A stretch of 64,000 nt of DNA from Ancylonema sp. Its lineage: Eukaryota. The translations under genes were made by a program, and so were the position numbers. The notes beneath the pieces are model-generated. The model was not told the DNA's origin. It did no database searches and saw nothing but the letters and a program-made list of their open reading frames with translations. The first letter of the stretch is position 1. Each line of letters begins with the position of its first letter. The stretch lies in NCBI GenBank assembly GCA_050230475.1, contig JBFLGF010000041.1, positions 1-64,000 on the forward strand. Direction: 5' to 3'. This document shows, piece after piece, positions 8,501-59,174 of the stretch.

Positions 8501-10013
8501 CGTTCCCCACCCCCTCCACTCCCCCCCCTCCCCGGTGCGTGCGTGTGTGTATGTGTGCGTGCGAAGTGAATGTTTATTGGTTGATCGGTCGTATACCTGG
8601 CATGGCAGTACGGATCTGGCATGGATGGGCTGGCACTGTGTGAACACGTATGGCTGATGACCGCCGGCCGTCTGCTGAGGAGAGAGCCACTGAAGGGCAG
8701 TAGCGGTGGGGGAGGTGTGGTAGGCTGGGGAGGAGGGGGGGGCTTATTCATTATCACCACTGGGACTATGAAACTTGGTTATGGACGGATGGGTGCCAGA
8801 AACATTGATACACATTTGTGACAGCTGGTCCAAGTTCGAGGCACCTTCTGATACATATGACCGACATACCGTAGCTTTGGCTGGAACATTCTGAACCTTG
8901 GCTACTTGGATGTGTATATTGTGGAGAAATAGGTGAAGACAGCTGTCATCGTGTTGATGCGTTTGTGGAGTGTACATGTGGTGATTCTGGTGTAGCACAG
9001 ATGTGATTCGTTTGGTTTCCTACTGACGAGTTCCACCTGTTAGATCACGTAAGATCAAGTCTGGAAGTAGGTGTGCAGTAAAGAAAAACGATTGCAGTTC
9101 CGTACGTGTACATATCTAGGATACGTGGTTCTGAGTTATCACCTCAACTTTTACATAGATATGTCCAAATATACAAGCTTACATTTCTGTATGCATAAAT
9201 GTATATGTTCGTGTATACGTACGCATGTTCAAAAGACTCGAGTCAACCTACATGTGGACCCATCGTATCAGAAAAGCATGTGAAAATGTAAGTTGAACTG
9301 TCACCCAACCATACCCCTGCCGAATTTGAGACGCAGCTACAGAGTGCCTGTCCCAAAAATGATTCTGGAAACTCACTGATGGTCACTTCATCGTCTTCCA
9401 GAGAGAGTTCCAGCAGCGTCCCTTTGATTGCATCCGCTGGCTTGTCGAGACTGAAGCGGACTGCAGCGTACTCAAAACGCCAATACGTTATTGAAAGAGG
9501 TCAGACCATAAAACCGGATGAGAGGCCAATGCTGTAGTAAGCTGATAACCACTAGGAGGAGAGCAGGAATGTTGCATATGAAGACATGCGATAACGGTAC
9601 CAGTTGACATACCTGGTTTTCCGGAACTGTCCCTGGCAGCTTCAATGGTCAAGTCTCGCGTATCCAGATAGAGAATGCCAGCAGCCTGACCAAGAGAGAG
9701 CGACAAGAGAAACAACATGGAAGCCATGAGCCATACCTATTTTTCAAATGATCGGAAGGTAGAGCGATTCAGCAATATTCAGTGGTAAAATAAATAAGGT
9801 GATATTCGACAGTGAAATACAGACGAAGATATTTGCCTCTATTTAGCCAGAATTTCTCTTGTCGGTTCCAGAACGACCTACCTTGAATGCTAACTTCAAC
9901 CTAGCAGTCCCGGAAATAAGTTTGGTTTCAAAGTCGACTTTCAGATGAAGGTCGATGGAAGTCGTTAGGGGATGAGTGCTGTCAGTGTAGGAATGGGGAT
10001 CGATCGGGGCCAT
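5582..10013 (-). CDS. LTA4H: leukotriene A4 hydrolase-like M1 zinc aminopeptidase (multi-exon)
   Basis: Starts [15 protein letters not shown]. Exons carry [40 protein letters not shown]...[13 protein letters not shown] and IGRMKF..PLY; the GT-AG junctions checked keep frame. Confidence 0.95.
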
Positions 10014-10092
10014 TGCGAATCTCAAGAAATATGTAAGGTTTTCCCCAACTGCAGTCGGACGGGACCGCAAGCCGAAACGCATGCAGTGAAAC

Positions 10093-11650
10093 CATTGTTG
10101 GATCCGCCCTGAAAATTTCGCCCCGCTACTCGCCCCGGGCGAGCCCGCCTCGAACGGTGCTTCGGGCTAAAATATTTTCGCCCGGGGCGGCGATATGTGT
10201 TTTTTTTTAGTTTTTTTGGCAAAAGGATCCCAAGACCACGTAGATTCTGTACATACCGGTAGTCGAGATTTTACAACACTAAGAACACCCCTAAGTACGC
10301 CCGCCATCTTTACTCGTGTAATATTATTTTTCATATCTCAATTTTTTGTCCACGCCACGCCACGGAGTCGCACTCATGGGTAAACATTAGATGATGTCGG
10401 TAGGGTGGCGGTAACCCGCATTTATTTTGTCCGGTTTCAGAATAACCCGCACTTACCCTCAAGTAACCCGCAAATACCCTAACGTACCCCTAATTACCCC
10501 CACCCTACCCTCAAAACCCCTTAAATACCCGCAAATATCCCTGAAAACCCTCAAATACCCTGAATTACCCTAGCATATCTTAACATACCCTGAGGGTATT
10601 ACACCTTATCAAAAGCTAGAAAAAAGTCCCATTCAAAATTAAAAAAAACTTCGGATTTCTATCATTTGAATGTTAAGAGAGCCTCTTTGAAAGACACGCA
10701 ATTGTAAAGCCTAGACGTTGTATACACGAGTATTTGACGGTATCGTTGTAAATAAGATGGAGCATGGACCATAGTGGAACATGGAACATAGTGCATGGAC
10801 CATAGTGACTCGCTCATCTTATTCTTCCGAAAGATCCACATTCCGCCGCAAGTGTTCCACACATTTATCATGAGATGGCTCTTCTTCACCAACCAACTCT
10901 TGCGTATCAAGTGACATGTCCATGACGAAAAATGGTTGCTACTGTGTCCGCAAGCCTCAACAAAAAAATGAGCCACCCACCCACATAGCTATCCACGACC
11001 TCTACACAAGTCCGATCCGGGCAGCCTCAAGACTCTCTAAGCCGCCAGCGACAACTTGTCGCGGACAATGGGGATGGGACTCGCGCCGTTCGTAACAAGA
11101 TTTTCGTGGGCCACGGCCAGGCCGCACAAATTCGTAACTAGAAATTTGGCGATAAGAGACCTATAAATGACAAAAAAATCCCGGAAGAACCTACCATAAT
11201 CTACCCTCATGTACCTAGAATACACTCAAATACCCTCATATACCCTCAAATACCCTAAGGTATCCCGGGTATTTTCGGGTACGAGGGTTATTCCGGGTTA
11301 TTGCGGGTTTTTAACCCGGTTTTTGGATGCCGGGTTATTTGCGGGTTAATACCTCAGGGTTACGGGTTAAGGGTTTTCCGGGTTAAGGGTAGACTGCCAC
11401 CCTAGATGTCGGACGTGTGGCGTATGGCGCACACTTTCCAAGAAGTCGGTTATGAACAAAACTGACCATCTCTCCCCATTGAGTTTTTTTTGTTTCTTTG
11501 TTTTTTTATTTTTTTGTGTTTTTGTTTTTTTGTTTTTTTTTGTTTTTGCATTTAGGTCTATGGCTCCGCCCCGCGATTCCGCCCCGCTTTTTGCCCCGGG
11601 CGAGCCCGCCCCGGGCGATTTTTTTTCTTCCCGGGGCGAAGCCAACAATG
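10093..11650 (+). mobile_element. hAT-type MITE family A, copy 1 (carries a nested element)
   Basis: TIRs cattgttgg / ccaacaatg, with a perfect 8-bp TSD agtgaaac (10085-10092, 11651-11658). It has gccccgggcg subterminal repeats, and its internal core is shared with the copies at 35786 and 58359. Confidence 0.9.
10401..11404. mobile_element. nested non-autonomous hAT element (1004 bp)
   Basis: TIRs tagggtggc / gccacccta, with a perfect 8-bp TSD gatgtcgg (10393-10400, 11405-11412) and arrays of (t)accc / gggt(t/a) subterminal motifs. The empty site is visible in the paralogous copy at ~36395. Confidence 0.92.
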
Positions 11651-11704
11651 AGTGAAACCGGGAATGATAACCAACACTTTCCAAATTAATAACCATTCTA
11701 AAAA

Positions 11705-11987
11705 GGGAGAGACTGCGGGCACCCCCCTAAGCGACTGCGGGCACCCCCCTCCGACGGCCCCGCAGTCTCTCCCTTCAAAATAGCCAAGTTAAAAAAATCA
11801 TATATTCTATTTTCTTTGCTATATTCATTTTTTTTTTTGGCGCACTATGGAGGGGACTGCCTAGTTTTTTTTCGTTTTTTTCGTTTTTTTACAATCTACC
11901 AATGTGGAGTTTAAAAAAGGGAGAAACTTCAGGCTGTCCGGAGGGGGGTGCCCGCAGTCGCTTAGGGGGGTGCCCGCATTTTCTCCC
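11705..11987. mobile_element. Mutator (MULE)-type MITE, copy 1
   Basis: ~50-bp G-starting TIRs (gggagagactgcgggcacccccctaagcgactgcgggcacccccctccg), with a perfect 9-bp TSD ttctaaaaa (11696-11704, 11988-11996). Confidence 0.92.
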
Positions 11988-12019
11988 TTCTAAAAATTGT
12001 TTAAATTAATCCTCTCTCA

Positions 12020-12567
12020 TTGATAACCTTTCTAGAACATGTTCAACGAGAACATACCGGCTTTCTTCCGTCCTCCGCTCCGGGCGGTCGTGGAGGGCGA
12101 GTGGATATTGTTATTTCGGATTTGGTGGAGGGGCATATTTTGGTGGATGTGGTCATTGCTGACCCCACGCAACGTGATTTGGTGGATCGCGCGGCTTGTC
12201 GAGGGTTGTTGGCCGCAGCAGATGCGGAACGGCGCAAAAAAACTCACTATCGTGATCGCGCGGCGGGGACCAAGTTAATCCCGTTTGCGTTGGAGACGTA
12301 CGGTGCGTTATCCGATGCAAGCAATCGGTTGTTGGTGGATTGTGCTCACCGTGCGGCGCAGCCGAATGGGCGATCGGGGCAAAATGTTAGTTTGATAGTT
12401 ATTTGGTTTCGGCAGAGAGTTTCTGTTGCGTTACACCGTTCTCTAGCACATACAATCCATGCTAGGACGTTGCGATTGAAGTAGGGTATGGCTCTGTTAC
12501 CCCCCCCCCCCCTCCGCGGATGTCATTGTCGTGAACACAGTTAAGGATTGTTGCTGGGCTGTTTTAG
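12020..12567 (+). mobile_element. 5'-truncated CRE-like non-LTR retrotransposon: restriction-like endonuclease C-terminus
   Basis: The peptide RVDIV...DVVIADP...AAADAERRKKTHY...IPFALETYG...RQRVSVALHR fits the RLE domain pattern (D...DV...AE..K..Y...PF..ET.G...R.S.AL.R). No RT is present upstream. Confidence 0.75.
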
Positions 12568-21213: not shown

Positions 21214-22585
21214 AGGCCCCAAAACTGTCGGCAATTATTTGTAGGTTGAAAATAGAATGAGGGATAGCCCTTAATAATAAAGTAATTCCTTGCCCCCCCC
21301 CCCCTTTTTTATTGTGAATTGTGATTTTTTTTGAGGGCCCAATAAATTATGGCCTGATAATGGTGTTCTAATATTTTTTTGGGAATTTTTTCGGAGGTGT
21401 GTTGTGTTAGGCTAACTCAAAACTATCAATAATTAATAGTTCGTGGTTGAATTGTTGATCTTCCGTCAAGACTCCCTACCTCGGGCAACCCTTTCCCGTA
21501 TTTTGCCCAAGGGGGGAATAGTATCCGTTCGACAAAGTACCATATTCTTGTTTCAAAGCTGTAAAATAACTTAATTTCATGGCCTATACCACGAGCACTT
21601 GTAGTTTGATCCAACGCCGATTCGGTAAGACGTTCAAGTTACACTTTGGAGTGAAACTCTACATCACTAGAAAGTGTTGTGTAAAGACAAAGTCACCTGA
21701 GTTTTTGTTTCATGGTAGATGTAGAAGTGTCGAGTTGGTATAAACGAACCAACGTTTTGCGGCACGCAAATGTGGACGAGCATAAATTATCGAGCACGCA
21801 TAATTTTTCCCATCTTTTCGCCTTCTAGCCCTAATTGACGAAATGTGCCCCAAATCATGCCATGACCGAGTTATTATGTGATTCATAGTTACCTAAAGCG
21901 TGTCTAGCCATCCGGCGAGCCCCGCTTCGAACTAGGGTTCGTCCTTTTAAACATATTAAAGACCAGCGTTTGATTCATTTGAAATATTCTCTTTCGCTTA
22001 GTCTTCATGTTGAATTGTCGTGATTGTATTGCACTTGTCTTTAGCATGAAGATGATTGAATATGGCCAGTATGGAACGCTGACACCTTTCTTGCTCCTCC
22101 AAATAATTTGATATCTAGTAAGCTAGTATTGCACACAAGTGTGATCGTTTACATATATAAATTGGTGCGATACGCACATATACGATACGCACAATACGCT
22201 AAGTCAGCATACGCTAAATACGCGTATTGTGCTCCCAACATATTGATACGCTAAAATACGCTTAAAAATACGCTAAATTTCGAACTTGTTTTGATTTTCG
22301 GTATGATATTGCATGTACGAAAGTTTTGACGGAGGCAGACATCATTGCGAGGTCCACGTCGTTTGAAAGTGAAATAGTGAAAGTGAAATTTATTCGATAC
22401 TGCATCGCACAAATAAAATCATATACATGTTGGCTAGTAAATGGCATCCGACCGTCCAAGTTTAAGATGGGATTCTCGCGGGAGAGATGGGACGTGTTAC
22501 TCCATCGCTAGGCCTTGCCATATATCCTATAACCAGCCTCAACTTGCTCATGTAAGCGGAATTGGTGTGTGTACGGTTTCATCCA

Positions 22586-23735
22586 TGTCATGACGCTAGA
22601 GATTGCTAAGGCTAAACCCTTCTAGATTGAACATAAACCCTTCTAGATTAATATTGTGCTATAACGAGAGTATTCGATATAACGATTTTCTAGAATTATT
22701 ACTTTATCAGAAAAATACTGAAGTACGAAATTTGTACGACTTGAAAATAACGCGTGGCGTATTTTCCAAAGTCTAGAATCCAGTAGTCTTCAACAAATAG
22801 CTGCGAGTCGATTTTTGTTAAAATTACAAGTCTCTTTCGAGTTGTCGATAATTCCGGCGATTAAATCCAGCCGTAGAACTAGAGTAATATCTCGCGCCGT
22901 TTTTCATCGGAGCGCCGAGATGAATTGTAATGTTCTAGAAAGCCAGCCTGTCGCTATCTTCGACAATTTAACTCTAGTTAACTATGCCGGTTAGCACCGC
23001 GCAACAACTTTATAAAAGTAAAATCGTACTTTCAGATCTGCCAGCTTCCGCTGTCAGATTGCGCTGTTAAGAAATCTCTTCCAAACAATCTTTTGTGTTA
23101 TCTGAATCCTTTGCAATTCTGTAAATATTGCATCCCTTCGCTTACGCGACTTCGCAACGTGCTCGTCTTCCGACTCAGCTTGACATCCGCCAGCCAGCCG
23201 GTAAGATTGCAAATCATTTTTTGCAATGTGTGTGTGTGTATTTGATCTGATTCATATGAATCTGTTGCTGACGCTCTTCCTAGGCCAGCTTGTTCATCGA
23301 CTGTAATTTCTTACATCGATTCGTTGACGCTCTCTTTGAGCCAGCAAGCGTATGTGTGTGTTTAACATCTGTCGATTTTCCTGCGTTCTCTCCCAATCTC
23401 GCTCCGAACTGGCAATTTCAGTTGTGTGTGTGTGTTTGTTGTCGCTCGCTCCGAGCCAGCATTTGTTGTTTACACCTGTGTGCTGACGCTCTTTCTGAGT
23501 CCGCATCTTTTATCGACGCGCCGTCGATACTTTGCTTTCGCACCGAAAGTAACTCTTACGGTTGTTAACCTTGATAGTCTGCTCCATACTATCTTGTTTG
23601 CTTTCTAGTATTTTCACAAACTTTTGTACTATAAACCATCTGTTAGCTCAAGTAGTTAATTTCACCAGACCGCTGAGACGTGTGATAGATATAATATTGA
23701 TATCTCAGCAGAGACTCAACTACAATACTACTTCA
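22586..23735 (+). repeat. split direct repeat A1
   Basis: Runs tgtcatgacgctagaga...caatactacttca and is colinear with 30028-31186. Confidence 0.95.
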
Positions 23736-24389
23736 ATCCGACCGCGGAAGACCTTGAATTATCAACAATTTAAAGTCAGAAAAGGTAAATTGCCTAAGAA
23801 AAAAAAAAAAAAAAAAAAAAAAAAAAGACAACTTTTCTTCTACTATTTTGTATTCGATGTGCTCGCAAGAGTAGTGCATGCAGTGGTCACGAGATAGTAG
23901 AGGGAGATTAACCAAACTCGTGATAACAAAATCTGCTGAAATTGTCGATCGACCAGCTGCACCAGCTGTCGACAATAACTGTCCACGATCATCGGACATT
24001 GATATAATTAATATCGAATCACCAGCTGCACCAGTTGTTGATAACTATATTCATACTGATATTGACAATTCAGCTGCACTAGCTGTCAATATTTCGGCAT
24101 TCCATTTGCCAACCACTCTTCTCGATAACGATTCTACAACCCAAGTAGAATTAAAAATTGAACCCAACAAATTGACACGTTCTACATCTGAACCATAACA
24201 TTCTTTGGAACGCCTACCTACAGGCTCTATTAACTTGAAACCTGTTCTGATTATTGACACAGACGACCACATCGTCGATACCACAGCACCTGTGGCTGGA
24301 CCATCGACCACTGTTCCCACTACAACGCCACCAACGCTGCAACAACATCCATTTATCGACACAAGATAAAAGGTGGGACAGACTCTACC

Positions 24390-27300
24390 ATGGCAAACCC
24401 AACGCCATTACTAACATATACTGGAGAAATTGGTGTCAAACAAGACGAGTTCATCGATAGTTTGAGACAGTTAGACCGAACTCAACAACGCGCACAACGT
24501 ATGGGGCATGTTACAGTGGGACTTCAAGTACTTGCAGCGGGTCAGTATATGAAAGGAGAAGCTCATCGAGAATGGCAACAGTTTGTACGTGACAACCGTG
24601 GTACTACTACTACGGAAGATATTCTAGATATGTACCGTGAACATAATTCCAATGTCGCATATTATCGTCTGCAAGGTAACAGGATGGACAACATGCACCG
24701 ATCAAACCCACATTATCGGCAGCAGAACCAACAAAACTGGAACTGTTCATCACTACCATTTAAAACCGTTTATAGAACTTCAGCTGCAGAATATGTCACT
24801 CAGATTGAAACATTCTTAGCACGACACAATGTCAGCGTGGCAACGACATTTGCACGTTTTAACGAACCCGCGACAATTGTTAAAGAGGCATGAGCCATGA
24901 CAGAAGAACAATTGGCTAGGAGGTATCTACCACATATTCCTCTACCACTACAACCCTATATCGACGACTGGCATTTTCGTGAAATCAGAGGAAAGTTATT
25001 AAAGAATCCACCGGATCTCCTATCACATGGAAGGAGATTATCGAGAAAGCCAACAAGGCCGAATTACTACGTATGAAACAAACGTGAGAACCGCGCAGCT
25101 GGGATCACAGATCTCCTAAACTACCTTCATATACTCCATCTACTCCATACAATGCTCCTAAACCAACAGGCGTATTGATACCACGACAGGATAACAACAT
25201 GGAATGCTACAACTGTCATCAGACCGGACACCTTTCGCGTGACTGTCCTGCACCAAGGAAACAAAACAACTTCCAGTCATCAGGTTACCAGTCTGAATAA
25301 AAAATCCAAAACCCAACCAATCCTCAGGATCACAGTTTAAGGGAGGTGCGTACGGTACTGAAAACAGACAAACTTTCAAACCACGACTTCGCCAGTTTGA
25401 TGCAAAATAGTACACCGCTGATGCATTCTGTGAATACTGCAAAGGGAAACACCACACCCGAGACCAATGTCAAAAACTTGCCAAGGCACAAAACTTACTA
25501 ACTCTCAGTACACCACCCAGTGCAAATACTCAACCCACACAAACCGGGTGGAAGACTCTTGAGACGCAGACAAGTTACTTGGCTATGCAAGTAGACGACT
25601 TGGCACGCCAACGCGAATTCGAAAACATGTCGCACCAGACAACGGACTCTGAGGTAATATTGACCATACCATTCCGTGTCAATACCTATTGTCCACCAGA
25701 CGTTCACCACGGCTGCAAAAGAGAAGAAGAAACAAGCGGAATCCATAGACAAACTACATTTCATGTTCCTGTGGTCACTCTCAGCTCTGATGCAGCCTCA
25801 CCATCTGAATCCACCACAGATTATCACACTCCAACTATTGATACACCTGTGGCTGAAACGCAAGCACCACTCTTGCCTGAAACTACACCAATTCATTATC
25901 AATCTGATCCTGAACCAAGTAGTTCTACCACTCCATACCCGGAGCCCCATCCAGAGACATTGCTTGAACAACGAACAAGAGAGGGGGAGGATTACGGTCG
26001 CAGATAAGGATACAATACAAAGATGCCAGACTCATTTGTACCTGGTTTTCCTAACATCTTGGAAGCTAACACTAAAAACATGACCCAGTTCCATGATACT
26101 GCTGCTCCTCCACCCATGCCTCTACCACAATCACAAGCTCTTCATGACATGTTTCATGACCATGTCAATGTTTTAAGTGCACAAGTGCAGATCGCGGAAA
26201 AGGCACGAGACAACGCAGCTGCACTTGTCAACTCCATGCAAGAACCTGCAGCCCAATATACCATTGGTCAAGATTTCACCACTTCCTCACCACGCAACTC
26301 TCAGAACACCAAATATGGTATTGCACTCCTTCGCAACAACCGTGGGGTGTTAACAATCATGAATGAGAAACCAAACAAGGTGGTAGTTGACAGAGGTGCC
26401 ATCAAAACCATGATTGGCAGCATCATGGCATCCAAACTTGGAATCACACCAAACATGTTGAAACCTGGGACACCATACATCACCGCATATGGTGCTCAAG
26501 AAATCAGTCTCGGTTCAACCAAGGAAAAATTTCCGATTACCATTGACAGAGGTACACCCAATCCAACCACCATTTATATGGAACTCCACATGTCTCCATC
26601 GAGAGAATTTGACGTCTTACTAGGCAATGAAATTCTTGGACCAATTGGTGGATACTTTGACCCTTGGCAACATCTATTCTTTTATAGGGCAGATTGGGAA
26701 AGGGGTGGGTTATGCCTAGCATCATTACCACTCGCAGTCCGACATCAATCCAACAAACTAGAAGTGTATATGAGAGACAGTGTTTCACCATCTCTGACCC
26801 TCACACCTGAGGATCGTGCTGCAGCTCTCCAACAGAGGGAGAAGAAGGCCAAAGCATAACAATTTGCCAGAGACAGTGAATCTGCACGTGTCAGCCCACG
26901 CCGTTCCATTCAATTCGGCTCCTAACCAAAGGAGGCCGTCTTGCCTACCCTACCACCGGTCAAAGTGGCGGCAGGTGATTATGAGGATAACTATCCCCCT
27001 ACACCTGGCTCCAAATGCATTGACCCTCCACCTGAGTTTACAACGGAGAGTGTGGAATTACAAGCAACTGAGGATACACCTCACCAATTAGTAGCACGCA
27101 ACCGACTGTATGCTGAAATCGAGGACAAAATCAAGCGCAAGTGTATTCCTGCAGCACTAGAACAAGCAAAGTTTATAGATTTCAACCAACCCATCTCATC
27201 TCGCAACAGTGTGTGTCAGACATTCTTACGCGCTGCTGGATTTGAAGAGACTCCTACTCCTATGGAATTAGATACATCAACAATTCCATCCTTAGACATT

Positions 27301-28964
27301 CCAACCAGTCCCACAGCACCTCAACATTCTCTACTTGACACTCAGTTCATTTCAACCATTCCTTTTGATAGAGACCTTTCTCGAGCTGACAGCGACACTT
27401 TCAAACCAGATGAGCTACACGAGCACACGGAGGACGAATTACGAGACCGTTACCACACTATGATCTCCCAGAAACGATTTCAGGCGGTCGCATTCGAAAT
27501 GCCCAAAACAGAGGCCGAGGCAACGATCAAACGCAAAATCACGCAACTCATCAAGGAACAAGAGTCGGTGCTTCTCTGCAAAGATGTGCAAGCTGAACTC
27601 GACATCACGACAGCTCGGGAGGACGAAAAGAGCTGATGGATCCAACGCTATGATCTTCTGACAAACTGCATTCCAAATTGGAAGACAAGATGTAGGACCT
27701 GGTCAAACTTCACGCAACACAACTCCAAGAAGTTCGCCAAGAAGCTGCTCGTCTGGAACAGAGGCTGCATATGGAAATCGGAAAGAATGTGCTGCGAGGA
27801 GAACAGTCAGCAGCAATTCCCCGTTCCTCACCTACCAGCTCTGCACCCTCCACATCCATCAATCCTGCACCTTCTCCTGTTGCAAGCACCCCTACCCAAC
27901 GAGGGGGTGATACCATGGACACATCGGAGGCCATAAAACCTCTTACAATTGCTCCGCGCAAACGAGAGGCATATTCCACTCAACCAATCTCCCCGAGTGA
28001 AGTACGTCCCGCCAACCGGCAGCGCATGCAGTCAGCATCACCAGCCGCGGCAACACATCGAGTAGAGACCTATCTGATGGATAGTCGGCGGTCTACACCT
28101 ACGACTCCCAGCTCTTCATCCCAGCTACCCACGACGGAGGACCAGGGACAACCCACCGTCTAGGAAATGGAGAGGGAGGCTATGAAGAACAAGCCACTCG
28201 GTGCATACGCACACCTGCGCGACCCCAGAGACAAAACCGATGTTGCTCAACGCCTCGCACGCACAAATACGAGTGTGTCAGATTTTACCTTTCGCCAACC
28301 ATTCGGTCGACCGGCTATGGCGCATCTCCTCAACATGGGCGCCATCCCGAAGGCCTTCTCCGGGGCAGATCGCAGCAAGTTGGCAGATTCTATCTACGCG
28401 CCAAATATCCTATATTACGGAGACACGCACTACCAAACCATCACGCGAAATGGTCAAACTTATCTGAGGGAGGCACACCTCAAAATGCAACATGACTACC
28501 AACCAATCCAACCTGTCATCACCTGGGCAGGTCCCATATTTCAAGGTGCATACGCACTTCCTCGTACCATCATCTCCACGCAACCAACTTTTGAGGCTCG
28601 TGGTCTACACATCTACATCCCCTCCGGCAACCTGGAAATTGTGGAGATCTGTCTCGAGGGAGGCTCCATCGTTTCCCACGTCACGCCGAAGACGGACGGC
28701 ATCGACACCAAAAACCGCTACCGCCAAAATCTGCGACAACTCCAACTCCGCTTTCCAGACTAGCTGCCGATGCCGTTCGATGCACCATCTCAGCAGTGCG
28801 TGCCACCTTCTCCATTCGGGATCGAGCAAGCTCTTGGACGATCTGTGGGATACACAGCTCATGGTCGAATAACCGACGCCATGCGCGCCTCCCACCTTGG
28901 CCACATGATGGACGGACGACTCATCATGTTCCCGGCGGAAATCCTCCAGGGCACCAAACCATAG
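24390..28964 (+). pseudogene. degenerate gag / CCHC zinc knuckle / retropepsin protease / unknown-domain polyprotein
   Basis: Gag-like YMKGEAHREWQQF; CEYCKGKHHTRDQC (CX2CX4HX4C, 25429-25470); VVVDRGA...FDVLLGNEIL protease. Segments share frames broken by TAA/TAG stops. No RT, RNase H, integrase or tyrosine recombinase motif was recognised. Confidence 0.8.
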
Positions 28965-29862
28965 GAATCACCCCTCACCTCGGAACAAAGGTATTTACCA
29001 ACCTCGACTCTAGGGGGGAGGGACACTAGATCCTCCGGTCAAAAAAAATCAGCCAATCCTGTCAAACCACCCGGACGGAACAAATCCAAATCCAAAGTCA
29101 ACAGTCAAATCCAAACTACGGACAAACCCATTACAGTCCAAAGCTAACCGACCAATTTATGACCTAACATGGCATCGAAACCCGGTCCACGACCACGGCC
29201 CTCAAATTCAACCAAACCAACCAAAATAAGGCCTTAAAACTCAACGGTCAAACTTGATCTTTTTGGTCCACGACATTCTGGTCTCCGGTCCTTATCTGGT
29301 CAACAGAGTAAAACTCGAAATCAGTCTACAACCATCCCAGACCTACCAAACATCACTTGGATATCAAACACACCAAGACGACAATCTCTACCAACATCTC
29401 ATGCTGCCTCTTACCACACGAGGAAACACCATCAAAAACAACATGAAGATTTCTCTTTCCTCAACCACACTTTTCACTACCAACCATCGGAACCACCTTC
29501 AGTACCACCTGTACAACTACATTTTTCTTTATCACCATATTCTACCTCACTATCCACACTCTCGGATTTTCTCAGCATACCCGATAGTCTACCAAACTTG
29601 CTGGAAGTACCATCTTCCCCAGATTATGAACATACCGTTTATACATATTTGGATGATTCTACCATTCCTACCTATGCACAAGGATCTACACCTGATCCTG
29701 ACGCATTATTCGCATTGTTAAGTACACGATTACCTTATACTAGTGATCCTGTCTTACCTTTACCTTCCAGTTTTGCCAATCAACCACGGCATTCTTTTGT
29801 CATGTTCTTATACAACCTTGTTTGCTGCTATTTCCGAGCTCCTTCACAAGCGTTCCACAACT

Positions 29863-29872
29863 AGGGGGGGGA
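29863..29872 (+). other. polypurine tract
   Basis: a-g8-a immediately precedes the TG that starts repeat B1. Confidence 0.75.
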
Positions 29873-30025
29873 TGTGAGAGCAGCCGGACCACCAAGTCCA
29901 CCTGAGACCCTTCGATCACCTACGAACATCATCGATACCAACCCAGTCAACATCATCACTTCTACACCACGAGCATTACCACATGCATCTTTTTTTCCAG
30001 GCGGCCGACTTCAAACAGCATGTCA
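29873..30025 (+). repeat. split direct repeat B1
   Basis: Runs tgtgagagcagccggacc...agcatgtca; matches 31187-31383 apart from a ~45-bp internal gap. Confidence 0.93.
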
Positions 30026-30027
30026 GC

Positions 30028-31186
30028 TGTCATGACGCTAGAGATCGCTAAGGCGAAACCCTTCTAGATTGAACATAAACCCTTCTAGATTAATACTCTG
30101 CTATTACGAGAGTATTCGATATAACGATTTTCTAGAATTAGTACTTTACTAGAAAAATAGTGAAGTACGAAATTTGTACGACTTGAAAATAACGCGTGGC
30201 GTATTTACCGAAGTCTAGAATCCTGCAGTCTTCAACAAATAGCTGCGTGTCGATTTTGTTAAAATCACAAGTCACTTTCGACTTGTCGATAATCCCGGCG
30301 AACAAATCCAGCCGTAGAAACTAGAGTAATATCTCGCGCCGTTTTTCATCGGAGCGCCGAGATGAATTGTAATATTCTAGAAGCCAGCCTGTCGCTATCT
30401 TCGACAGTTTAACTCTAGTTAACTATGCCAGTTAGCACCGCGCAACAACTTTGTGATAAAAGAGAAAAATTGTACTTCCAGATCTGCCAGCTTCCGCTGT
30501 CAGATTATTGCGTTGTTAAGAAATCTCTTCCAAACAATCTTTTGTGTTATCTGAATCCTTTGCAATTCTGTAAATATTGCATCCCTTCGCTTACGCGACT
30601 TCGCAACGTGCTCGTCTTCCGACTCAGCTTGACATCCGCCAGCCAGCCGGTAAGATTGCAAATCATTTTTTGCAATGTGTGTGTGTGTATTTGATCTGAT
30701 TCATATGAATCTGTTGCTGACGCTCTTCCTAGGCCAGCTTGTTCATCGACTGTAATTTCTTACATCGATTCGTTGACGCTCTCTTCTCTCTGAGCGAGCA
30801 AGCGTGTGTGTGTGTATTAAACATCTGCCGATTTGCCCGCGTTCGCTCCGAACCGGCAATTTCATTTGTGTGTGTGTGTTTGTTGTTGCTCGCTCCGAGC
30901 CAGCATTTGTTGTTTACACCTGTCCGCTGACGCTCTTTCTGAGCCAGCATCTTTTATCGACGCGCCGTCGATACTTTGGCACCGAAAGTAACTCTTACGG
31001 CTGTTAACCTTGATAGTCTGCTCCAGACTCTCTTGTTTGCTTTATAGTATTTTCACACACATTTGTACTATAAACCATCTGTTAGCTCGCCCTCGGCGTT
31101 AAGTAGTGAATTTCACCAGACCGCTGAGACGTGTGATAGATATAATATTGATATCTCAAGAGACTCTCAATCTGCAATACTACTTA
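30028..31186 (+). repeat. split direct repeat A2
   Basis: Second copy of 22586-23735. Confidence 0.95.
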
Positions 31187-31383
31187 GTGAGAGCAGCCGG
31201 ACCGCCAAGTCCACTTGAGACCCTTCGATCACCTACGAACATCATCGATACTAACCCAGTCAACATCATCACTTCTGTACCACGAGCATTACCACATGCA
31301 TCTTTTTGAGAAACATCCGGGAACAAAAGGGAACAAAGTATGAAGAGCATCAGTCCGGGCGGCCGACTCCAAATAGCACGTCA
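31187..31383 (+). repeat. split direct repeat B2
   Basis: Runs gtgagagcagccggacc...agcacgtca and is followed by the TSD tcca. Confidence 0.93.
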
Positions 31384-33039
31384 TCCATCGCCCCATCCGC
31401 AATAGTCTTGATCTCTTACAAGGTGCTAAACTTGTGTACGTGTTCACCGATTTTCGGATCCTTGAAAAGTTCAAGCAGGCAAGTGTATTTTCCTCCGTGG
31501 ATTACAAGCAGGCATTTCCCATGTGGCCCAAAAGCGACAACAAGTACTCTTAAGAAGATGCGTGGAGGCTACTCATGATATACGTTCTCATGTTGACAAG
31601 AGGGAAGAATATTCTTCCCTCTTATATTCCCTCTTTAAAGGAACTCTGAGGAATCCTATTTTATTTTTTGAAGACTTGGTCGAGCGATAGGCTTCGTGAA
31701 GTGTTTATGAAAAACATGCACCAGATAATGGAGTAGGATTCATGTAATTATTATTGTAAAAGATTGTTTGTTAAATTTAAGTCTTGCAGTTGTTAACATC
31801 TTCTAGCATTTCTATTTTTATCACCTTACTTTCTAAGTAAAAACGGAAGTCGCCTTGGAGCCTTTTTTGGAACAAGTTGTAAAGATTGATGAAAATGAAA
31901 GCAAATAAAAAGAAGCTAAGAAGAGTGGGTCTTTCAACGAATGCCCTATTCTCGCACCAGCAAAAAGGAATAAAACATTTGCACATCTAATGGTAAGACA
32001 TGCGCGTGTCATGTATTTCATGGATAAATGCCTCCGGTTGATGCCCAATTTGATAAGGATAGGCACCCGATGTTACTATTCTACTTCCGAAGATGTGTGG
32101 GGTCTAAAACCATGAAAAAACGCATATTTCTTGACAATACGCGTATTTTCTAATCGCGAAATTTTCAATACGAGAAATACGGCGTATTGTGAACCCAGCG
32201 TATTGATAGCGTATTGCGTATTGTGCAACCCTGATATACACCACCTTAAATAACCCCTCTCCCCACTTCCCACTCCTCACTTGTCACTTCCTAAAAATCT
32301 TTACTCACTACGAATAACACACTTCTAAGTACCAACTTATACCAAAATTTTAGCCATTTTGTCAATTTTGAATTTCACCATCTCAATCAATGGACGGTTG
32401 GATATGAACATGCGATTTCATTTTTTTTATTTTTTTTAATATTGCTACAACTTCGCAAGCCACATATGACACATGTATATCACACGTGTGAGGTACATAA
32501 AAAACATGAAGCCCCACGTCCTTTTTCCCCGCGGAAAAATTGCCTTGCAAAAAAACCCGAAAAGTTCCCGGGTCGGACCGAGTCCCGAGTCGGGACCCGG
32601 TCCGTCCGCGATCCGAAAATCCAATGTTGCCGGTCCGTGCAACTAAGATTAAAAATCTAAAATTTACGACGACAAAATATTATTATATTATTTCAAAGAG
32701 AGGGTGTCTGCCCAACGATGAATCAATCCATCACTCCAGTTCGTATCGAAGACAAGGGTGCAATGACTCGGTGATCTATCCTCGTCGTACTCCTTGCTCG
32801 TCGGTTACTGCGTCTTTTAAAACACGGGCGATTCAAGCACCCCTTCGCACATAGGCACCTCAAACTTTATTCGCGTTGCTTCCACAATCTGGGTTGACAA
32901 CCAAAATCAACCCTTATTTTAGTGAGAAGTTAAAATAGTGGATCCAACAACACACACTAGAAACACCATTGCGAGAGGATCAATAACCAAAATGAACTAC
33001 TACCTACCTAGGTCCTCATGAAGAAAATAATGCACTCAC

Positions 33040-35388: not shown

Positions 35389-35777
35389 CATAGATCTACA
35401 CGCCCGTTAAAATCTCCACCGGGCGGCGCCCGCGGGCGAATTCGCCCGCGAGCGAAATTTGGGCGGGAATATCCCGCCCGCAGTGGGGTATATAGAGCTT
35501 TTTTAGGGTTCTGGTGTTTTCAGTTTGTAAAACTCCACACTGATCGAAATAAAAAAATAAAAAGTGCTAATATCAACAACATAATTTCATCTACATGTTT
35601 TTTTTTTTTTTTTAAGAATCTCATAAAACGTCTAGAAGCTATGCTTCTTTGAACTTGCTGTCTTGAAATCCCGAAATTCAGCGCGCCCGGGATGGACGGC
35701 GGGGCGGCGCCCGCGGGCGGTATCGCCCGCGGGCGAAGGCGGGCGAAAATATCCCCGCCCGCGGGCGGGTATATCTT
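35389..35777. mobile_element. hAT-type MITE family B
   Basis: Ends catagatctacacgcccg / cgggcgggtatatctt, flanked by ctcaaaac (35381-35388, 35778-35785), with gcccgcgggcg subterminal repeats. Confidence 0.75.
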
Positions 35778-35785
35778 CTCAAAAC

Positions 35786-36608
35786 CTACAGATGGCTCCG
35801 CCCCGCAAATTTCGCCCCGGTTTTTCGCCCCGGCCGAGATCGCCCCGGACGGCGCCCCGGGCGAATTTTTTTCGCCTGGGGCGTGGCCATGGAGGTTTTT
35901 TAGTTTGGGAGCGACTGCGGGCACCCCCCTCCGACTGGCCCGCAGTCTTTCTCTTAAAATAAGGTAAGTTCAAAAAACTACAGCTTCCAAACGTTTTGCG
36001 CTATTTAAAATATTTTTTTCTATGTACTGTAGAAGGGACTGCTAACTAAATATTAACATTTTTTTCATATTTGTTTACCGATCAATGTGGAGTAAAAAAA
36101 AATGGAGAGACTTCGGGCTTTTCGGAGGGGGGTGCCCGCAGTCGCTTTGGGGGGTGCCCGCAGTCTCTCCCTTTTAGTGTAAAAGGACCCCAAGACCACG
36201 TAGATCATGTACATCTTTTTAAGAATTGAATCCGATAAGTATTCGAGCTTTTATAACACTAAGTACACCTGCCATCTTTACCCGTGTAATATTCTTTTGT
36301 ATATCTCAAGTGTTTTTTTTTTTTTTTGGTATTTTGTTTTTATCGCATTATACCACGCCACGCCACGGAGTCGGACTCATGGATGACACTAGATGATGTC
36401 AGACGTGTGGCGTATGGCGCACATTGTGCAAGAAGTCGGTTTTGAACAAAACCAACCCTATTTCCACATTGCGGCATTTTTATTTTTGTTTGTATTTTGG
36501 CCTAAGGCTCCGCCCCGAAAATTTTGCCCCGTTTTTCGCCCCAATCGAGCTCGCCCCCGGCGGCGCCCCCGGCGAAAAAAAAAATCGGCCGGGGCGGGGC
36601 CAACTGTG
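35786..36608 (+). mobile_element. hAT-type MITE family A, copy 2 (carries a nested MULE MITE)
   Basis: Ends ctacagatggctccgcccc / ggggcggggccaactgtg, with TSD ctcaaaac / ctccaaac. The core is shared with 10093-11650. Confidence 0.85.
35907..36171. mobile_element. Mutator-type MITE, copy 2
   Basis: Same TIR family as 11705-11987, with 9-bp TSD ttttagttt / ttttagtgt. Confidence 0.88.
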
Positions 36609-44425: not shown

Positions 44426-44856
44426 TGTGAGTGCTTTCTTCTGCCATCGATGCAAGAATAAAGCACAATTCTCTCAGACAACTCTTGAATCGACAGATCA
44501 CGTCATTACAAACGTTCACACAACAAAAGTGCAACTTTGAAGTAGAAAAGTCTGATTACAGAATTCAGCATACAAGCTCAGACCTAGTACAGTCGATTGT
44601 TACCTGGTCAAAGAATCTACTGGTATTGAAACTACTTCGTCAACTGCCAATCATATCCAAGCATTCTGCCACATCAACTAGTTCTTATCGACACTTGTGC
44701 CAGATGGCCAAGCAATCATTGAAACAAGGACATCGGCCTGCAGCCGGCCTGCAGCCTGCCCCTGCATTTGCTGAATAACGATAAAACTAAAGCTAAATTT
44801 CCGGTATTGCTAAAATCGATATAACGACAAAAGTTCACAGCCCCTGAAAACTAACA
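44426..44856 (-). repeat. copia 3' LTR
   Basis: Direct repeat of 49432-49884 with small indels. Confidence 0.95.
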
Positions 44857-44946
44857 CCCCCTCCCCGGGTACTTTTGTATTCCCCCTCCAAAAACGATAA
44901 CCAAAAACGATATCGATTTTACAAACACAAGTCGACAAATTCTTTT

Positions 44947-47900
44947 TCATACACCAACCCCACCAGATCAAAATTCTTCTTCAACACCTTGACAGACACT
45001 GCTTTAGTCAACGTATCAGCAGCCTGGTCTTCACTCTTGACAACTGTAGACTGATCTTTTTCTTGGACACCCTCTCTCGAATGGAATGATACTTGATCTC
45101 GATGTGTTTGGAGCGCTTGTGGGAAAACAGAGGATTCTCGGCAAGTTTCAAAGAACTCTCATTGTCTCCCAGCAATAGCACACTCCCCCCACCAATACCC
45201 AACTCACTCCTTTTGCATCTGGCTCAAATAAATGGCCTCATTTCCAACAGCACTCATGCCCAAATACTCAACTCTCACAGCTTTGGTGTGTGACTGTCTC
45301 CAGGAGACCACTTTTCCAGCTCACAGCAGCTCCTCCACTAAGAAAGACATAGCCAGTTCTCCCCTTCCTAGTGTCGACGTCGTCACCATGACTAGCATCT
45401 GAGTAGCCGATGACCGGCAAATCACCTCCTTTCTTATACATCAGCCCCAAATTGACAGTTCCCTTGAGATATCGCAAAACTCTCTTTACCCCCTCCCAAT
45501 GCTTGTCCCCTGACTGCTGACTGTATCGACACAAGGAGTTAACAGCGGCTGCCAGATCAGGTCTTGTTCCGAAAGTGAGATACAGCAAACTGCCCATTGC
45601 AGACTTGTAGCCCACACCCTCTATTCCAGCAGATTCAGAAGCAGATCCCCAGTTTGCATAAAATTTTACACCCAGCTCAAGAGGAGAAGCAGCAGAATTG
45701 CAATCTTGCATCCCAAACTTGGTGAGGAGATCTCTGGCATATTTCTTTTGCATCAAAAACACGTGTCCATCAGACTGCCGTCGAATCTCAAGCCCCAGCA
45801 AGAATTTTGCTTCCCCCAGTTCTTTCATGTTATACTTCTTTCCCAATCCTCTTTTCACCCCAAAAATAGTATCCAGCCTGATGCAGAGGAGAAACACATT
45901 ATCCACATAGAGCGCCAAGTAGAGTGCTTCTGGCCCTGCTCCCAGAATATAAAGGTCAAAATCTGAAGCGAGACGATGAAACTGCAAGCTTTTCAGCACG
46001 TCGTCGATGTGCTGATTCCATCCTCTCGGTGCCTGCTTGAGGCCATACAAGCACCTGAGTAGTAGCCACACCAAGTATGCTTCACCAGGCCCACACGTGC
46101 CGTCAGGGGCCTCCATGTACACCTCCTCTTCCAGTGGTGCATAGAGAAAAGCTGTCGTTACATCCATCTGATGCATGTGTAGACCCCTGGAAGCTCCCAT
46201 GGCAACAAGTTGGCGAATGCTCTCAAAACGAACAGTTGGAGAAAAGGTCTGATCGTAGTCCTCTCCCTCTACTTGACTGAACCCCTTAGCCACAACTCTT
46301 GCTTTGTATTTTTCTACAGAACCATCTGCATTGAATTTGATTTTGAACACCCACTTTGACTTCACAACTTTCTTCCCCTTCGGCCTTGACACAAGTCGAT
46401 AGACCTGGTTTTCTTGTAGACTTGTCATTTTTGCAGCCATTGCAGCTTTCCACTCAACTGCTTGCGGGCTGTTAAGAGCTTCCTCGACAGTCGTTGGTGT
46501 CTTTATCTCACTTTCCAAGTTGGCCACAAAAGCAGCAGCAAATCTGTTGGGATGCATTCCTTTGTTCTCCCTTGCAGATCGACGAATAGGCTCGGGATCA
46601 TCGATAGAAGTTTCTGAAAAGTTGTCGTTCATGCACATTGGATTAAGAGGAGTAGCATCATCTGGATACCATTCTGGACCATCTTCGAGATGATATTCGT
46701 CTTCATCGCCTCCACTAGAATCGCTGACAAGTTATGGAAGATCTGCACTCTGAGGAAGAGGAGATCTCGGAAGCTGTGGCAATGGATTTCCCACAGCATC
46801 AGGGATCTCTTCATCGACAAAATTTGGATCGCCATAGGCAGGTTGCCCACCTCCATAAATGCCCCCTCCGAGGCCAACACTACCCCCTCCTGCTCCTTGA
46901 TGAGCTGCATCCAGATCTGGCCATGACATTTTTGTTTCTGCAACTGGCTCATGCACTCTTGCCTTCTTGCCAATTTTATGACCCCTCCACCAGCTTTGCT
47001 TGACAGATTCATCGAAGTCTGCATGACCAGTGCCAACGTTGTGTGCTTTGTTCGTTGCAGGATCCCAGACTCGGTAGCAAGGACTGTCGGGATTCCATCC
47101 AACTAACACACCAAGCCAAGCCAGCGCACTCATTTTCCCAGCCCATCTTGTTTCCCTCCAGTCGCACATAAACTTAGCAGCCGAATGATCGAAGATGATC
47201 GACCTTTGGCACCTCTCCTGACCACATCTCCTCTGGAGTCCTTGGAAGACCGCTGACTTGACATCGATTTCTGAGATATGAAGCTAAGGAGATTGCTTCT
47301 GCCCACAGAGACCAGGAGGAGAAGTTGCATGTGCAAAAGCATAGAGCGAGCCCCCTCTCTTGCAACGTACGATTCGTGCGCTCTGTGATTGCATTGCCTT
47401 GAGGAGTGTTTGGCGGAGTTGTCTCATGTCTGATGCCTCTGTTTTTGAGCCACTTCTACAAATCACCATCGATAAACTCTCCTCCTCGATCTGATCTCAT
47501 TTTTTTAACAGGTTTCCCAGCTCGTCTTTCCGAGATTGCGATCCATTGCTTCAGACGAGGAGCTGCATCATCTTTGCTGCGAAGAATTTCCACCTAGGAT
47601 TTTCGGCTGTATTCATCGACGAGCACCATGTTGTACACTCCTCCCCCTATTGATACTGAATTGAACGGCCCTGCCAAGTCCACCGACACTCTTCCCAGGC
47701 AGACTTGTTCTCCTGCTCCAGCTTCTCGTTGAGGATGAGGTTTGTCGTGTGCCTTCCCCAGCTTGCACCCTTCACAATTTTGCAGAACTCCTGAGATGCC
47801 TCCTTCCAGTCCTCGTACCAAGATGTTGTCGTGCCACATTTTTGAGCACTCTCTCATTTGCCATGCCCAAGTCTTGTGTGCAGGAGGTTGATTTCGGACA

Positions 47901-49402
47901 GTAGCTACAACAACCTTCCCCTTCAGTAAGTTGCTGATGTCGAACCGGTGTGCAGATGAGAGTTTTTCGACGTGTCGATGTTTCTTGCAGAGTGCAGACT
48001 TGTTGTCTTGATTTGCTGTAAATTGGAATGATGCCACCAGCTTTTCCACTGCAAGTGTAAGACCACCCTGCTTCTCTGGCTTTCTGACCGCTGAACAAAT
48101 TAATGCGCATCCTAGGAATGTACAAACATTTCTTGAGTGTTACTCCTCCACACTCTCCCTCAGTATTCAACTCAATTGTTCCCCATTATTTCACTCGCAC
48201 ACTTCCGACCAGATGATGCATGATGACCTCGTGTGGAATGTCTTCGAGGATTTTGAAAAGATTTTTCTGCCCACAGGAATGGTGACTGGAACCATCGTCG
48301 AAAAGGAAATCTTTCTCTGCATCATCATCATCCGCAACATTTCCTTTCACAGATTTCACAATGATAGCTTCTCCATGACCACAGCTCTCCTCCTCATCGA
48401 TTTCGCCAACGAAAGTTGTTTTTCTCTGCGTACCCCCTTTCTTTGCATTCGTGGAGCTTCGTTTTTCTTATCGAAACATGTGAATTCCACATGACCAATG
48501 GCTCCACAATATCTGCATTCTTCGTTTTTCTTGGAGCAGCCTCTCTGCTATAGTGACTTGTCTCTCCACAAGTATAGGAGGAATGTCCTCCACTTGATCC
48601 ACTGCCTCCACCTCTGCCTCCACGACCACCTATGATTCCACGATTATCTGCTGAATACCCCCTGAATGTACCCCTGCCTCCACGATTGTCGATACCACCA
48701 CCTCTGCCTTGGCTTGAAAATTTTTGTTGCGCTGACCACTTAGCATAGTTTGCCTCTACAACTAGTGCCTCAGCATCTTTGACATCTTTTTCTTTCTTGT
48801 CGTCCAGCTCATCCATTCCCATCTGCCCCCAGATCCAGCTGATCCCAGGTGCCTCTTTCTGTCCATAGTAAAGCTTCTTCAACATGCCGTATTTTGTTCT
48901 TGACATGCCAGCAAACAATGCCATCACCTGGTCTTCTGCGCTGACTAGAAATTTTTGATGTACACACTCTCTGATGATCGACAAAAAGGTATTCTTGATT
49001 TCTCTGACTGGCATCTTTTCATCAATCTTGAAAGAGTTCAGCTTTTCTTTTGCAATCTGTCGAAGTTCTGGAGATACCTTGTCATACTCCTCTGTCAGAT
49101 AGTCCCACATCGCCTTTGGATCTCGTTCAAATTGTTCAAGTGATGTCGATGTCGTTACTGACAAGTTGCATAAGTAGCATGACTGCCTTCTTTGATCTTT
49201 TGCGGAAGCTTCTGACATCAAGTGTACACTGCTCCATTTCTGCTTCATTTGTTGGCCAGTGTTCATCACCATATCTGGCTGTAACCTCAGCTGGAATAGT
49301 CTCTGTTCCTTTGCAGATCTCAAGGCACTCAACATCATCAAGAGTAGCTGAGAGTAGCTGAGGCCTTAGATCTCCATGCTTGTAAGGTAACTTTATCTCC
49401 AT
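44947..49402 (-). pseudogene. copia gag-pol (gag, PR, IN, RT, RNase H) with frameshifts and stops
   Basis: CGETSH knuckle; CEGCKLGK...VDLAGP...VDEYSR integrase; QMDVTTAFL, LYGLKQAPRGW and LYVDN (YVDD mutated) RT; YSDAS and RSKHIEIKYH RNase H. Confidence 0.95.
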
Positions 49403-49431
49403 CCAGAATGCAGTAGCTCTGATACCACTGT

Positions 49432-49884
49432 TGTGAGTGCTTTCTACCGCCATCGATGCAAGAATAAAGCACAATTCTCTCAGACAACAACTCTTGAATC
49501 GACAACAGCGACAGATCACGTCATTACATACGTTGACACAACAAAAGTGCAAGTTTGAAGTAGAAAAGTCTGATTACAGATTTCAGCATACAAGCAGACC
49601 TAGTACAGTCGTTTGTTGCCTGGTCAAAGAATCTATTGGTATCGAAACTACTTCGTCAACTGCCAATCATATCTAAGCATTCTGCCACATCAACTAGTTC
49701 TTCTTATCGCGACACTTGTGGCCAGATGGCCAAGTAATCAATTGAAAACAAGGACATCGGCCTGCAAGCCGGCTTGCAGCCTGCTGCCACCTGCATTTGC
49801 TGAATAACGACAAAACTAAAGCTAAATTCCGGTATTGCTAAAATCGATATAACGACAAAAGTTCACAGCCCCTAAAAACTAACA
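49432..49884 (-). repeat. copia 5' LTR
   Basis: Adjacent to the PBS through a 4-nt spacer. Confidence 0.95.
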
Positions 49885-58358: not shown

Positions 58359-58874
58359 CATTGTTAAATTTTAACCCGGGGCGCCGTCCGAGGCGTTTTC
58401 GCCCGGAGCGAAAAAACCGGGGCGAGATTTTCGGGGCGGGGCCATAGGCCAAAATACCCAAAAAAAACAAAACTGCCGCAATGCGGAGATATGATTGGTT
58501 TTGCGAAAATTGACTTTTTGCACAATGTGCACCATACGCCGCAAGTCGGACATCATCTAATGTCACCCATACTCACCTACTCCGTGGCGTAGTGTGGTAT
58601 AATTCGAGAAAAATAAAAATAAAAAAAATAAAACTTGAGATACACAAAAGAATATTACACGGGTTAAGATGGAAGGCGTACTTAGTGTTATAAAATTTTA
58701 TCTACTTGTTGGATTTGACTTTTAAAAAGATGTACATGATCTACGTGATCTTGGGGTCCTTCTGCAGAAAACCTAAAAAACCTCTATAGATCCGCCCCGG
58801 GCGAGATTTTTTTTGGTCGGGGCGCCGCTCGGGGCGAAAATCGGGGCGAAATTTTCGGGGCGGGGCCAACTATG
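58359..58874 (-). mobile_element. hAT-type MITE family A, copy 3 (inverted, no nested insert)
   Basis: Reverse complement of the family A core (e.g. atgtacatgatctacgtgatcttggggtcct). Ends cattgtt / ggggccaactatg; the TSD is not recognisable. Confidence 0.85.
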
Positions 58875-59174
58875 GTCCGCGACTGTGCTCCCAATTCCCT
58901 CGGCTACCCCAAAGAACTGATGTCAGACCCGTTGTAGCGTGCTAATACCTGGCATTCCTCGATATAACGGTTCTGGCGTCCGACTCGTCCGCGTACTTGC
59001 ATCGCGTCGTACCGAGGCAACGTGTCGGAATTTCCGAGTCGTCCTTCACCCCCCAAGTTCCCGCTCCGCGAGTTCGAATTCTACAGAGCAGCTCTGGCAG
59101 AGAGAGGTGCATACTTCTTGTAATCTACGTACTCCTGTCAGAGGCCGCCAACGGATCTTATTAGATCACAGACC

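Follow-up and report, generated by a model that had tools for sequence, protein, structure and literature searches.

A near-palindromic internal junction in a split-repeat, Gypsy-like element of Ancylonema sp. as a candidate site of integrase cutting

Layout of the element and its surroundings

The window (the whole 64,000-nucleotide stretch of DNA analysed here, positions 1 to 64,000 of contig JBFLGF010000041.1, Ancylonema sp. assembly GCA_050230475.1) carries an element of 8,798 bp at positions 22586-31383, which starts with TG and finishes with CA and whose features lie on the forward strand. Comparison of the window with itself gave the order A1–gag–protease–PPT–B1–GC–A2–B2 (PPT, polypurine tract), that is, split direct repeats as in Ngaro and PAT elements. 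Repeat A1 (22586-23733; 1,148 bp) forms the left end and opens with TG, and the left end of the family lies at the equivalent base. Repeat B1 (29873-30025; 153 bp) closes with CA, repeat A2 (30028-31185; 1,158 bp) opens with TG and repeat B2 (31186-31383; 198 bp) closes with CA at the right end of the element. B1 is 45 bp shorter than B2, owing to a 45-bp deletion in this copy.

The two flanks both carry TCCA (22582-22585 and 31384-31387), an agreement with a chance of 0.0044 for a 4-mer. The duplicated word on the left can be read out to 8 nt (22579-22586), and because the flank resembles the element ends the length of the duplication is ambiguous, at 4 to 7 bp; the value of 4 bp holds only with the CA as the element's right end. 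The 8-nt word common to 22579-22586 and 31381-31388 makes the target resemble the element ends on both sides, either by chance or through a target preference.

A broken gag-like region follows A1 (24390-25500, the right limit being approximate); it is interrupted by stops and frame changes, and a zinc knuckle is in frame at 25088-25297 (zf-CCHC, E 2.4e-7). The next open reading frame, at 26023-26859, was assigned as a retropepsin (aspartic protease) of the kind found in LTR retroelements; its active-site motif is altered in this copy. A further coding region of about 2 kb, at 26926-28964, contains stops and a frame change here. The breaks at 26857 and 28161 are read through in other copies. 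The last reading frame has one close homolog and received no Pfam, atlas or fold assignment (structure model pLDDT 37). Directly 3' of it lies a first polypurine-like tract (29009-29022), and a second polypurine tract (29861-29872) adjoins B1. The DNA between the two tracts, which are 850 bp apart, resembles neither A nor B.

Pfam scans of the reading frames and motif searches found no reverse transcriptase (RT), RNase H, integrase, recombinase or methylase in this copy; for tyrosine recombinase, the scanned frames gave no Pfam match and only scattered 4-residue motif matches were seen. No primer-binding site (PBS) or self-primer complement was found after A1, nor was a CA end or a TGG-type PBS present there, and the TG of the internal junction lies 155 bp past the polypurine tract. 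The window contains no tRNA gene, and Rfam gave no match of weight.

A1 and A2 differ by 54 substitutions in 1,129 aligned columns, and thus this copy is old. Two segments of the repeats, 23065-23336 in A1 and 30514-30785 in A2, are identical over 272 nt, with the repeats 6% apart elsewhere (p about 2e-8). Within this tract A1 and A2 share 7 of 7 non-majority letters among the contig positions listed; outside it, from 30105 on, all 13 listed positions have the majority letter in A1. This pattern suggests either gene conversion between the repeats or polishing of the assembly.

Other mobile elements are present in the window. A separate copia-type element occupies 44426-49884 on the minus strand (RVT_2, E 1.6e-69; gag, E 1.1e-9; repeats 90% alike), and it was judged not plausible as an enzyme partner. 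A reading frame at 12005-12484, which had no Pfam match, looks by eye like the part of a non-LTR retrotransposon that carries its endonuclease. Segments at 9800-12000, 35400-36600 and 58370-58880 belong to a dispersed repeat family that includes inverted parts and may consist of miniature DNA transposons.

The internal junction and the ends of family copies

Between B1 and A2, at 30019-30034, lies the 16-mer CATGTCAGCTGTCATG, a candidate integrase attachment site to which no strand was assigned. It consists of the final 7 bases of B1, a GC spacer of 2 bp (30026-30027) and the opening 7 bases of A2. A recount agreed with the earlier note that it matches its own reverse complement at 14 of 16 positions. 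The window holds 49 palindromes of this quality outside one TA run, so the palindrome by itself is at chance level; its position is not random, as it falls exactly where B1 ends and A2 starts (chance 3.8e-4 for one given position). The correspondence of its halves to the element ends, also claimed earlier, was found at 7 of 7 bases on the right (the first 7 bases of the element at 22586) and at 6 of 7 on the left (the last 7 bases, CACGTCA, at 31377-31383). The near-palindrome amounts to no more than a pair of short, imperfect terminal inverted repeats that face each other with 2 bp between them. The central GC is indeed missing from both genomic termini, where the bases just outside the element are CA and TC.

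Family copies were sought in contig sets of sequencing runs (named X1, X2 and so on), of which X1 may be the window's own sample, and the junction was recovered in sets from three studies. Part of the stretch is contained in 13 of the 14 sequencing runs listed, none of the listed runs containing it being an RNA run. To region 29750-31450 alone, 20,883 X1 contigs align, showing that the family is high-copy. No contig of X8 aligned to 29985-30075. Searches with DNA patterns gave no match in metagenome_contigs or viral_contigs; three matches in genome_contigs were dismissed as chance, since 4.3 were expected and they had no similarity beyond the pattern.

The earlier note had asked whether other insertions terminate at the junction, and many that start at its TG were found. 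Contigs with unrelated flanks stop exactly at 30028 in X1 (38 of 1,255 aligned to 29985-30075), X3 (4 of 105) and X7 (2 of 6), 44 in total from three studies, and the flank agreement among the 38 from X1 is 0.37. A further 15 X1 contigs stop at 30027, a number compatible with flanks that happen to end in C (p 0.24). None of the X1 loose-end rows listed (15 of 53) stops at 30026, and retention of the GC at left ends is therefore not common. The right end is less sharply defined: apart from this copy, it is exact to the base in a single X1 contig, which departs at 30025, none of the 15 of 53 rows listed for 29985-30075 having a loose end behind that base. Otherwise it appears as a fall in X1 depth from 295,978 to 790 between 31346-31402 and 31403-31450, with a similar drop in X2-X4.

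Variation of the spacer was also looked for, as the earlier note had proposed, and at 30026-30027 the listing at 1% or more contains neither an indel nor a substitution. The comparison of contigs over 29985-30075 lists a change at 30029 alone (2.3%); a change at 30062 that is listed in the wider-region comparison is absent from this one. At least 18 aligned letters on each side of the spacer were present in 14 of the 22 pieces listed (1,344 more being unlisted), and 13 of these 14 cross it without a gap; three further crossing pieces, with 8 letters or fewer on the left side, were set aside. Only one listed piece satisfied a 31-letter bridging rule, because B1 of this copy has its 45-bp deletion, and depth is dominated by the common variants; with the missing change at 30062, this falls short of proof that the spacer is invariant.

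The other boundaries of the repeats were followed in the same contigs. B starts right after the polypurine tract, and in most contigs its first letters are those of B2 and not TG; joins between the tract and B are present in many contigs. The A2/B2 join (31176-31198) connects the precise point where A1 gives way to the internal region with the B start that follows the tract, and may represent ligated cDNA ends. Its variation in the listed data is small, with one contig having one extra base.

Relatives of the protease

Among 1.84 billion representative proteins, 102 relatives of the protease were found. Of the 20 looked up, four had a named organism: Klebsormidium nitens, Closterium (two) and Coleochaete. 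The K. nitens protein matched the protease with 31% identity (E 5e-13), and its end runs into a methylase-like stretch in a profile comparison (E 1e-23). A C5 DNA methylase follows the protease in 5 of 32 relatives scanned, all five being among the nine longest, and a word resembling methylase motif I occurs in 8 of the 102. No relative scanned had a Pfam match to RT or integrase, and a word-index search returned no longer relatives. Protein-led searches for loci gave no usable relative, only one weak match of 33 residues (L004) and 79 loci that match the methylase part alone. In the element itself, a profile built from eight relatives matched only the protease, and gag weakly, in six frames, with no Dnmt3-like methylase.

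The proteins P0057, P0063, P0100, P0105, P0042 and P0112 join Gag, protease and DNA methylase, and some of them are from Closterium; with them, retroelements that bear a methylase are no longer confined to Klebsormidium. Neither P0057 nor P0112 has a match to RT before its end. P0113 has a zinc knuckle, a protease and a C-terminal PHD finger, again with no RT match, and is possibly another internally deleted element. The kinship of the element here suggests an affiliation with the KnitGypsy-Dnmt3 group, a link that rests on a 31% identical protease.

A possible integration route and its comparison with known systems

DDE-type integration of this element is supported by its TG..CA ends, the flank duplication, the retropepsin and the Gypsy-like kin. 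In the standard LTR scheme the position of the polypurine tract sets one end of the repeat that is built by reverse transcription. As the tract here precedes B, the TG and CA that integrase would use come to lie inside such a repeat. The reading that we favour, with a probability of roughly 0.6, is that the 16-mer is an internal B/GC/A join that is likely to be cut after CA on both strands by a Gypsy-type integrase acting in trans, with the GC being dropped and 4 bp of the target duplicated. The integrase itself is putative: none was found in this copy, nor by Pfam in the protease relatives scanned.

Under this proposal, reverse transcription primed at the polypurine tract would build a linear DNA flanked by two copies of B-GC-A. 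Joining of its blunt ends, either before insertion (as a two-LTR circle) or by later repair, would produce the A2/B2 join; one of these cDNA ends is deduced from repeat boundaries only, no primer site having been found after A1, and the small listed variation at A2/B2 would also fit a join that is inherited. Integrase would then open the upstream junction at CA^GCTG with a stagger of 2 nt, leaving recessed CA-3' ends and 5' overhangs of 2 nt, the same as in normal 3' processing, and strand transfer and repair would remove the GC. Opening of the upstream junction would yield A-internal-B-GC-A-B, the layout seen, with the internal junction serving as inherited template for both ends and as the cut site of the next cycle. 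The earlier note had proposed that staggered nicking of CAGCTG, 3' of the CA on each strand, would generate the observed termini, and the predicted geometry fits exactly. As a whole that proposal is borne out in part: the geometry and the DDE-type signs speak for it, but no integrase was found and the right end is exact to the base only here and in one contig.

Cutting of closed junctions has precedents. The integrase of foamy virus is described as cutting a palindromic circle junction in vitro after CA on both strands, to leave a 5'-protruding 2-mer (PMC1180852), and HIV-1 integrase as cleaving its own circle junction (PMC1905944).

A rival explanation is that the junction acts solely as a copying template: extra template jumps, of the sort proposed for elements of the DIRS order, would place the linear DNA ends at the junction, integrase would trim them by 3' processing with no internal cut, and the A/B join would simply be inherited. 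It accounts no less well for the TG..CA ends, the duplication and the loss of GC, it is compatible with the little listed variation at A2/B2 and with the failure to find a primer site after A1, and DIRS-1 is described as needing its internal junction as a template and as making linear single-stranded cDNA (PMC7192593). However, the polypurine tract stands before B and not before A, so that a plus strand primed there would have its DNA end where B starts, and A2/B2 is exactly the join expected from cDNA ends at the B start and the A end. We consider this explanation unlikely, though clearly ahead of the remaining two.

That the element is a non-autonomous one of Ngaro/PAT type, inserted by a tyrosine recombinase through a crossover in the junction, is disfavoured as very improbable. 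Such elements share the A1..B1A2B2 layout (PMC4157794, PMC8547959, PMC9210276), and the target here resembles the junction on both sides with its shared 8-nt word; but insertion of this kind is described as keeping the junction core without duplicating the target (PMC3266345, PMC7192593), whereas here GC is lost and TCCA doubled. The left flanks are also heterogeneous, with no GC-retaining row among the X1 rows listed, and a polypurine tract and retropepsin are present where the recombinase was not found. Least probable of all is a one-off event, whether a head-to-tail double insertion, a scrambling in this copy of an ordinary LTR element whose LTR is A+B, or a mistake of assembly. A2+B2 alone does read TG..CA, like a solo LTR, and the identical 272-nt tract of A1 and A2 points to later exchange or polishing. 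Against this, the B-GC-A join recurs in contigs of three studies, joins of the polypurine tract to B are found in many contigs, and a double insertion would leave target bases between the units rather than a fixed GC.

The junction is a real feature and the mechanism proposed for it lends itself to direct testing, but the copy seen here is dead and lacks the enzymes. A broader idea, to which we give even odds, is that in one Gypsy lineage of streptophytes integrase no longer uses the ends that reverse transcription makes, that every insertion there passes through a restriction-like cut in a palindrome inherited inside the LTR, so that integration from a circle junction has become obligate, and that protease-only parasites such as this family were amplified to high copy by that route. 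Whether integrase uses a closed end-to-end junction for real insertion is an old and disputed question in retrovirology, with support mainly from cleavage in vitro, and insertion from a circle junction is, to our knowledge, not a normal route of LTR retrotransposons. A high-copy family whose ends arise only from such a junction would be a genetic test case with a defined substrate of 16 bp. The element also shows that split direct repeats occur outside the recombinase elements, and such families would escape LTR finders that expect two full LTRs.

Among known systems, the earlier note had turned to the circle junctions of the IS3 family, in which a short spacer lies between the two ends and disappears when the DDE enzyme inserts the element. 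IS3 elements are prokaryotic DNA transposons, and their spacer comes from flanking DNA. The loss of the spacer on insertion is common to both, but the IS3 junction does not persist within the element once inserted, whereas the spacer here is a fixed, inherited part of it, and the analogy fits less well than that with retroviral circle junctions.

With Ty3/Gypsy (Metaviridae) the element shares a Gag with zinc knuckle followed by a retropepsin, TG..CA ends and the 4-6 bp duplication of that group, the duplication being known from one copy with an ambiguous length (4-7) and the left end from 44 contigs. It differs in that RT-RNase H-integrase is absent, as it would be from a non-autonomous element, and no partner was found. 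Ty3/Gypsy elements also have two complete terminal LTRs, with the polypurine tract by the TG of the 3' LTR and the PBS by the CA of the 5' LTR, whereas here the repeats are split.

A split-repeat layout on a Gypsy body is already in print, in one figure legend of 2018 that gives no mechanism: KnitGypsy-Dnmt3 of K. nitens is described as having DIRS-type repeats with Gypsy domains (Fig. 4c legend, de Mendoza et al. 2018; PMC5890265). Both share A-coding-B-A-B repeats on an LTR/Gypsy-type body (PMC5890265), and the protease here is related, at about 30% identity, to the protease-methylase polyproteins of streptophyte algae; the element here is without methylase, RT and integrase. The discussion, search methods and supplement text of PMC5890265 do not give termini, duplication, junction or mechanism, and beyond that legend no account of the junction or integration route was found in the literature searched, which included few subscription papers and no Repbase.

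Ngaro, PAT/TOC/kangaroo and VIPER have the same A1-ORFs-B1-A2-B2 order, with an internal junction that holds both ends, and solo AB units are reported for Ngaro (PMC4157794, PMC8547959, PMC6681497, PMC9210276, PMC3266345). As described there, those elements carry a tyrosine recombinase gene, in contrast to the TG..CA ends, duplication, lost spacer, polypurine tract and protease seen here. DIRS1-like elements are described as integrating with the junction core kept and no duplication (PMC3266345, PMC7192593), unlike the loss of GC and doubling of TCCA here. Troyka, with CG..CG ends and a 3-bp duplication (PMC12440569), is ruled out by the TG..CA ends.

The nearest parallel for the junction itself is provided by the two-LTR circles of foamy virus and HIV-1, where integrase cleaves the palindromic junction 3' of the CA in each strand (PMC1180852, PMC1905944), the foamy virus product, with its 5' overhang of 2 nt, having the geometry predicted here (PMC1180852). 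In those viruses the junction arises from joined cDNA ends and is a side route, whereas in the element here it is inherited inside the repeat, apart from the presumed cDNA ends.
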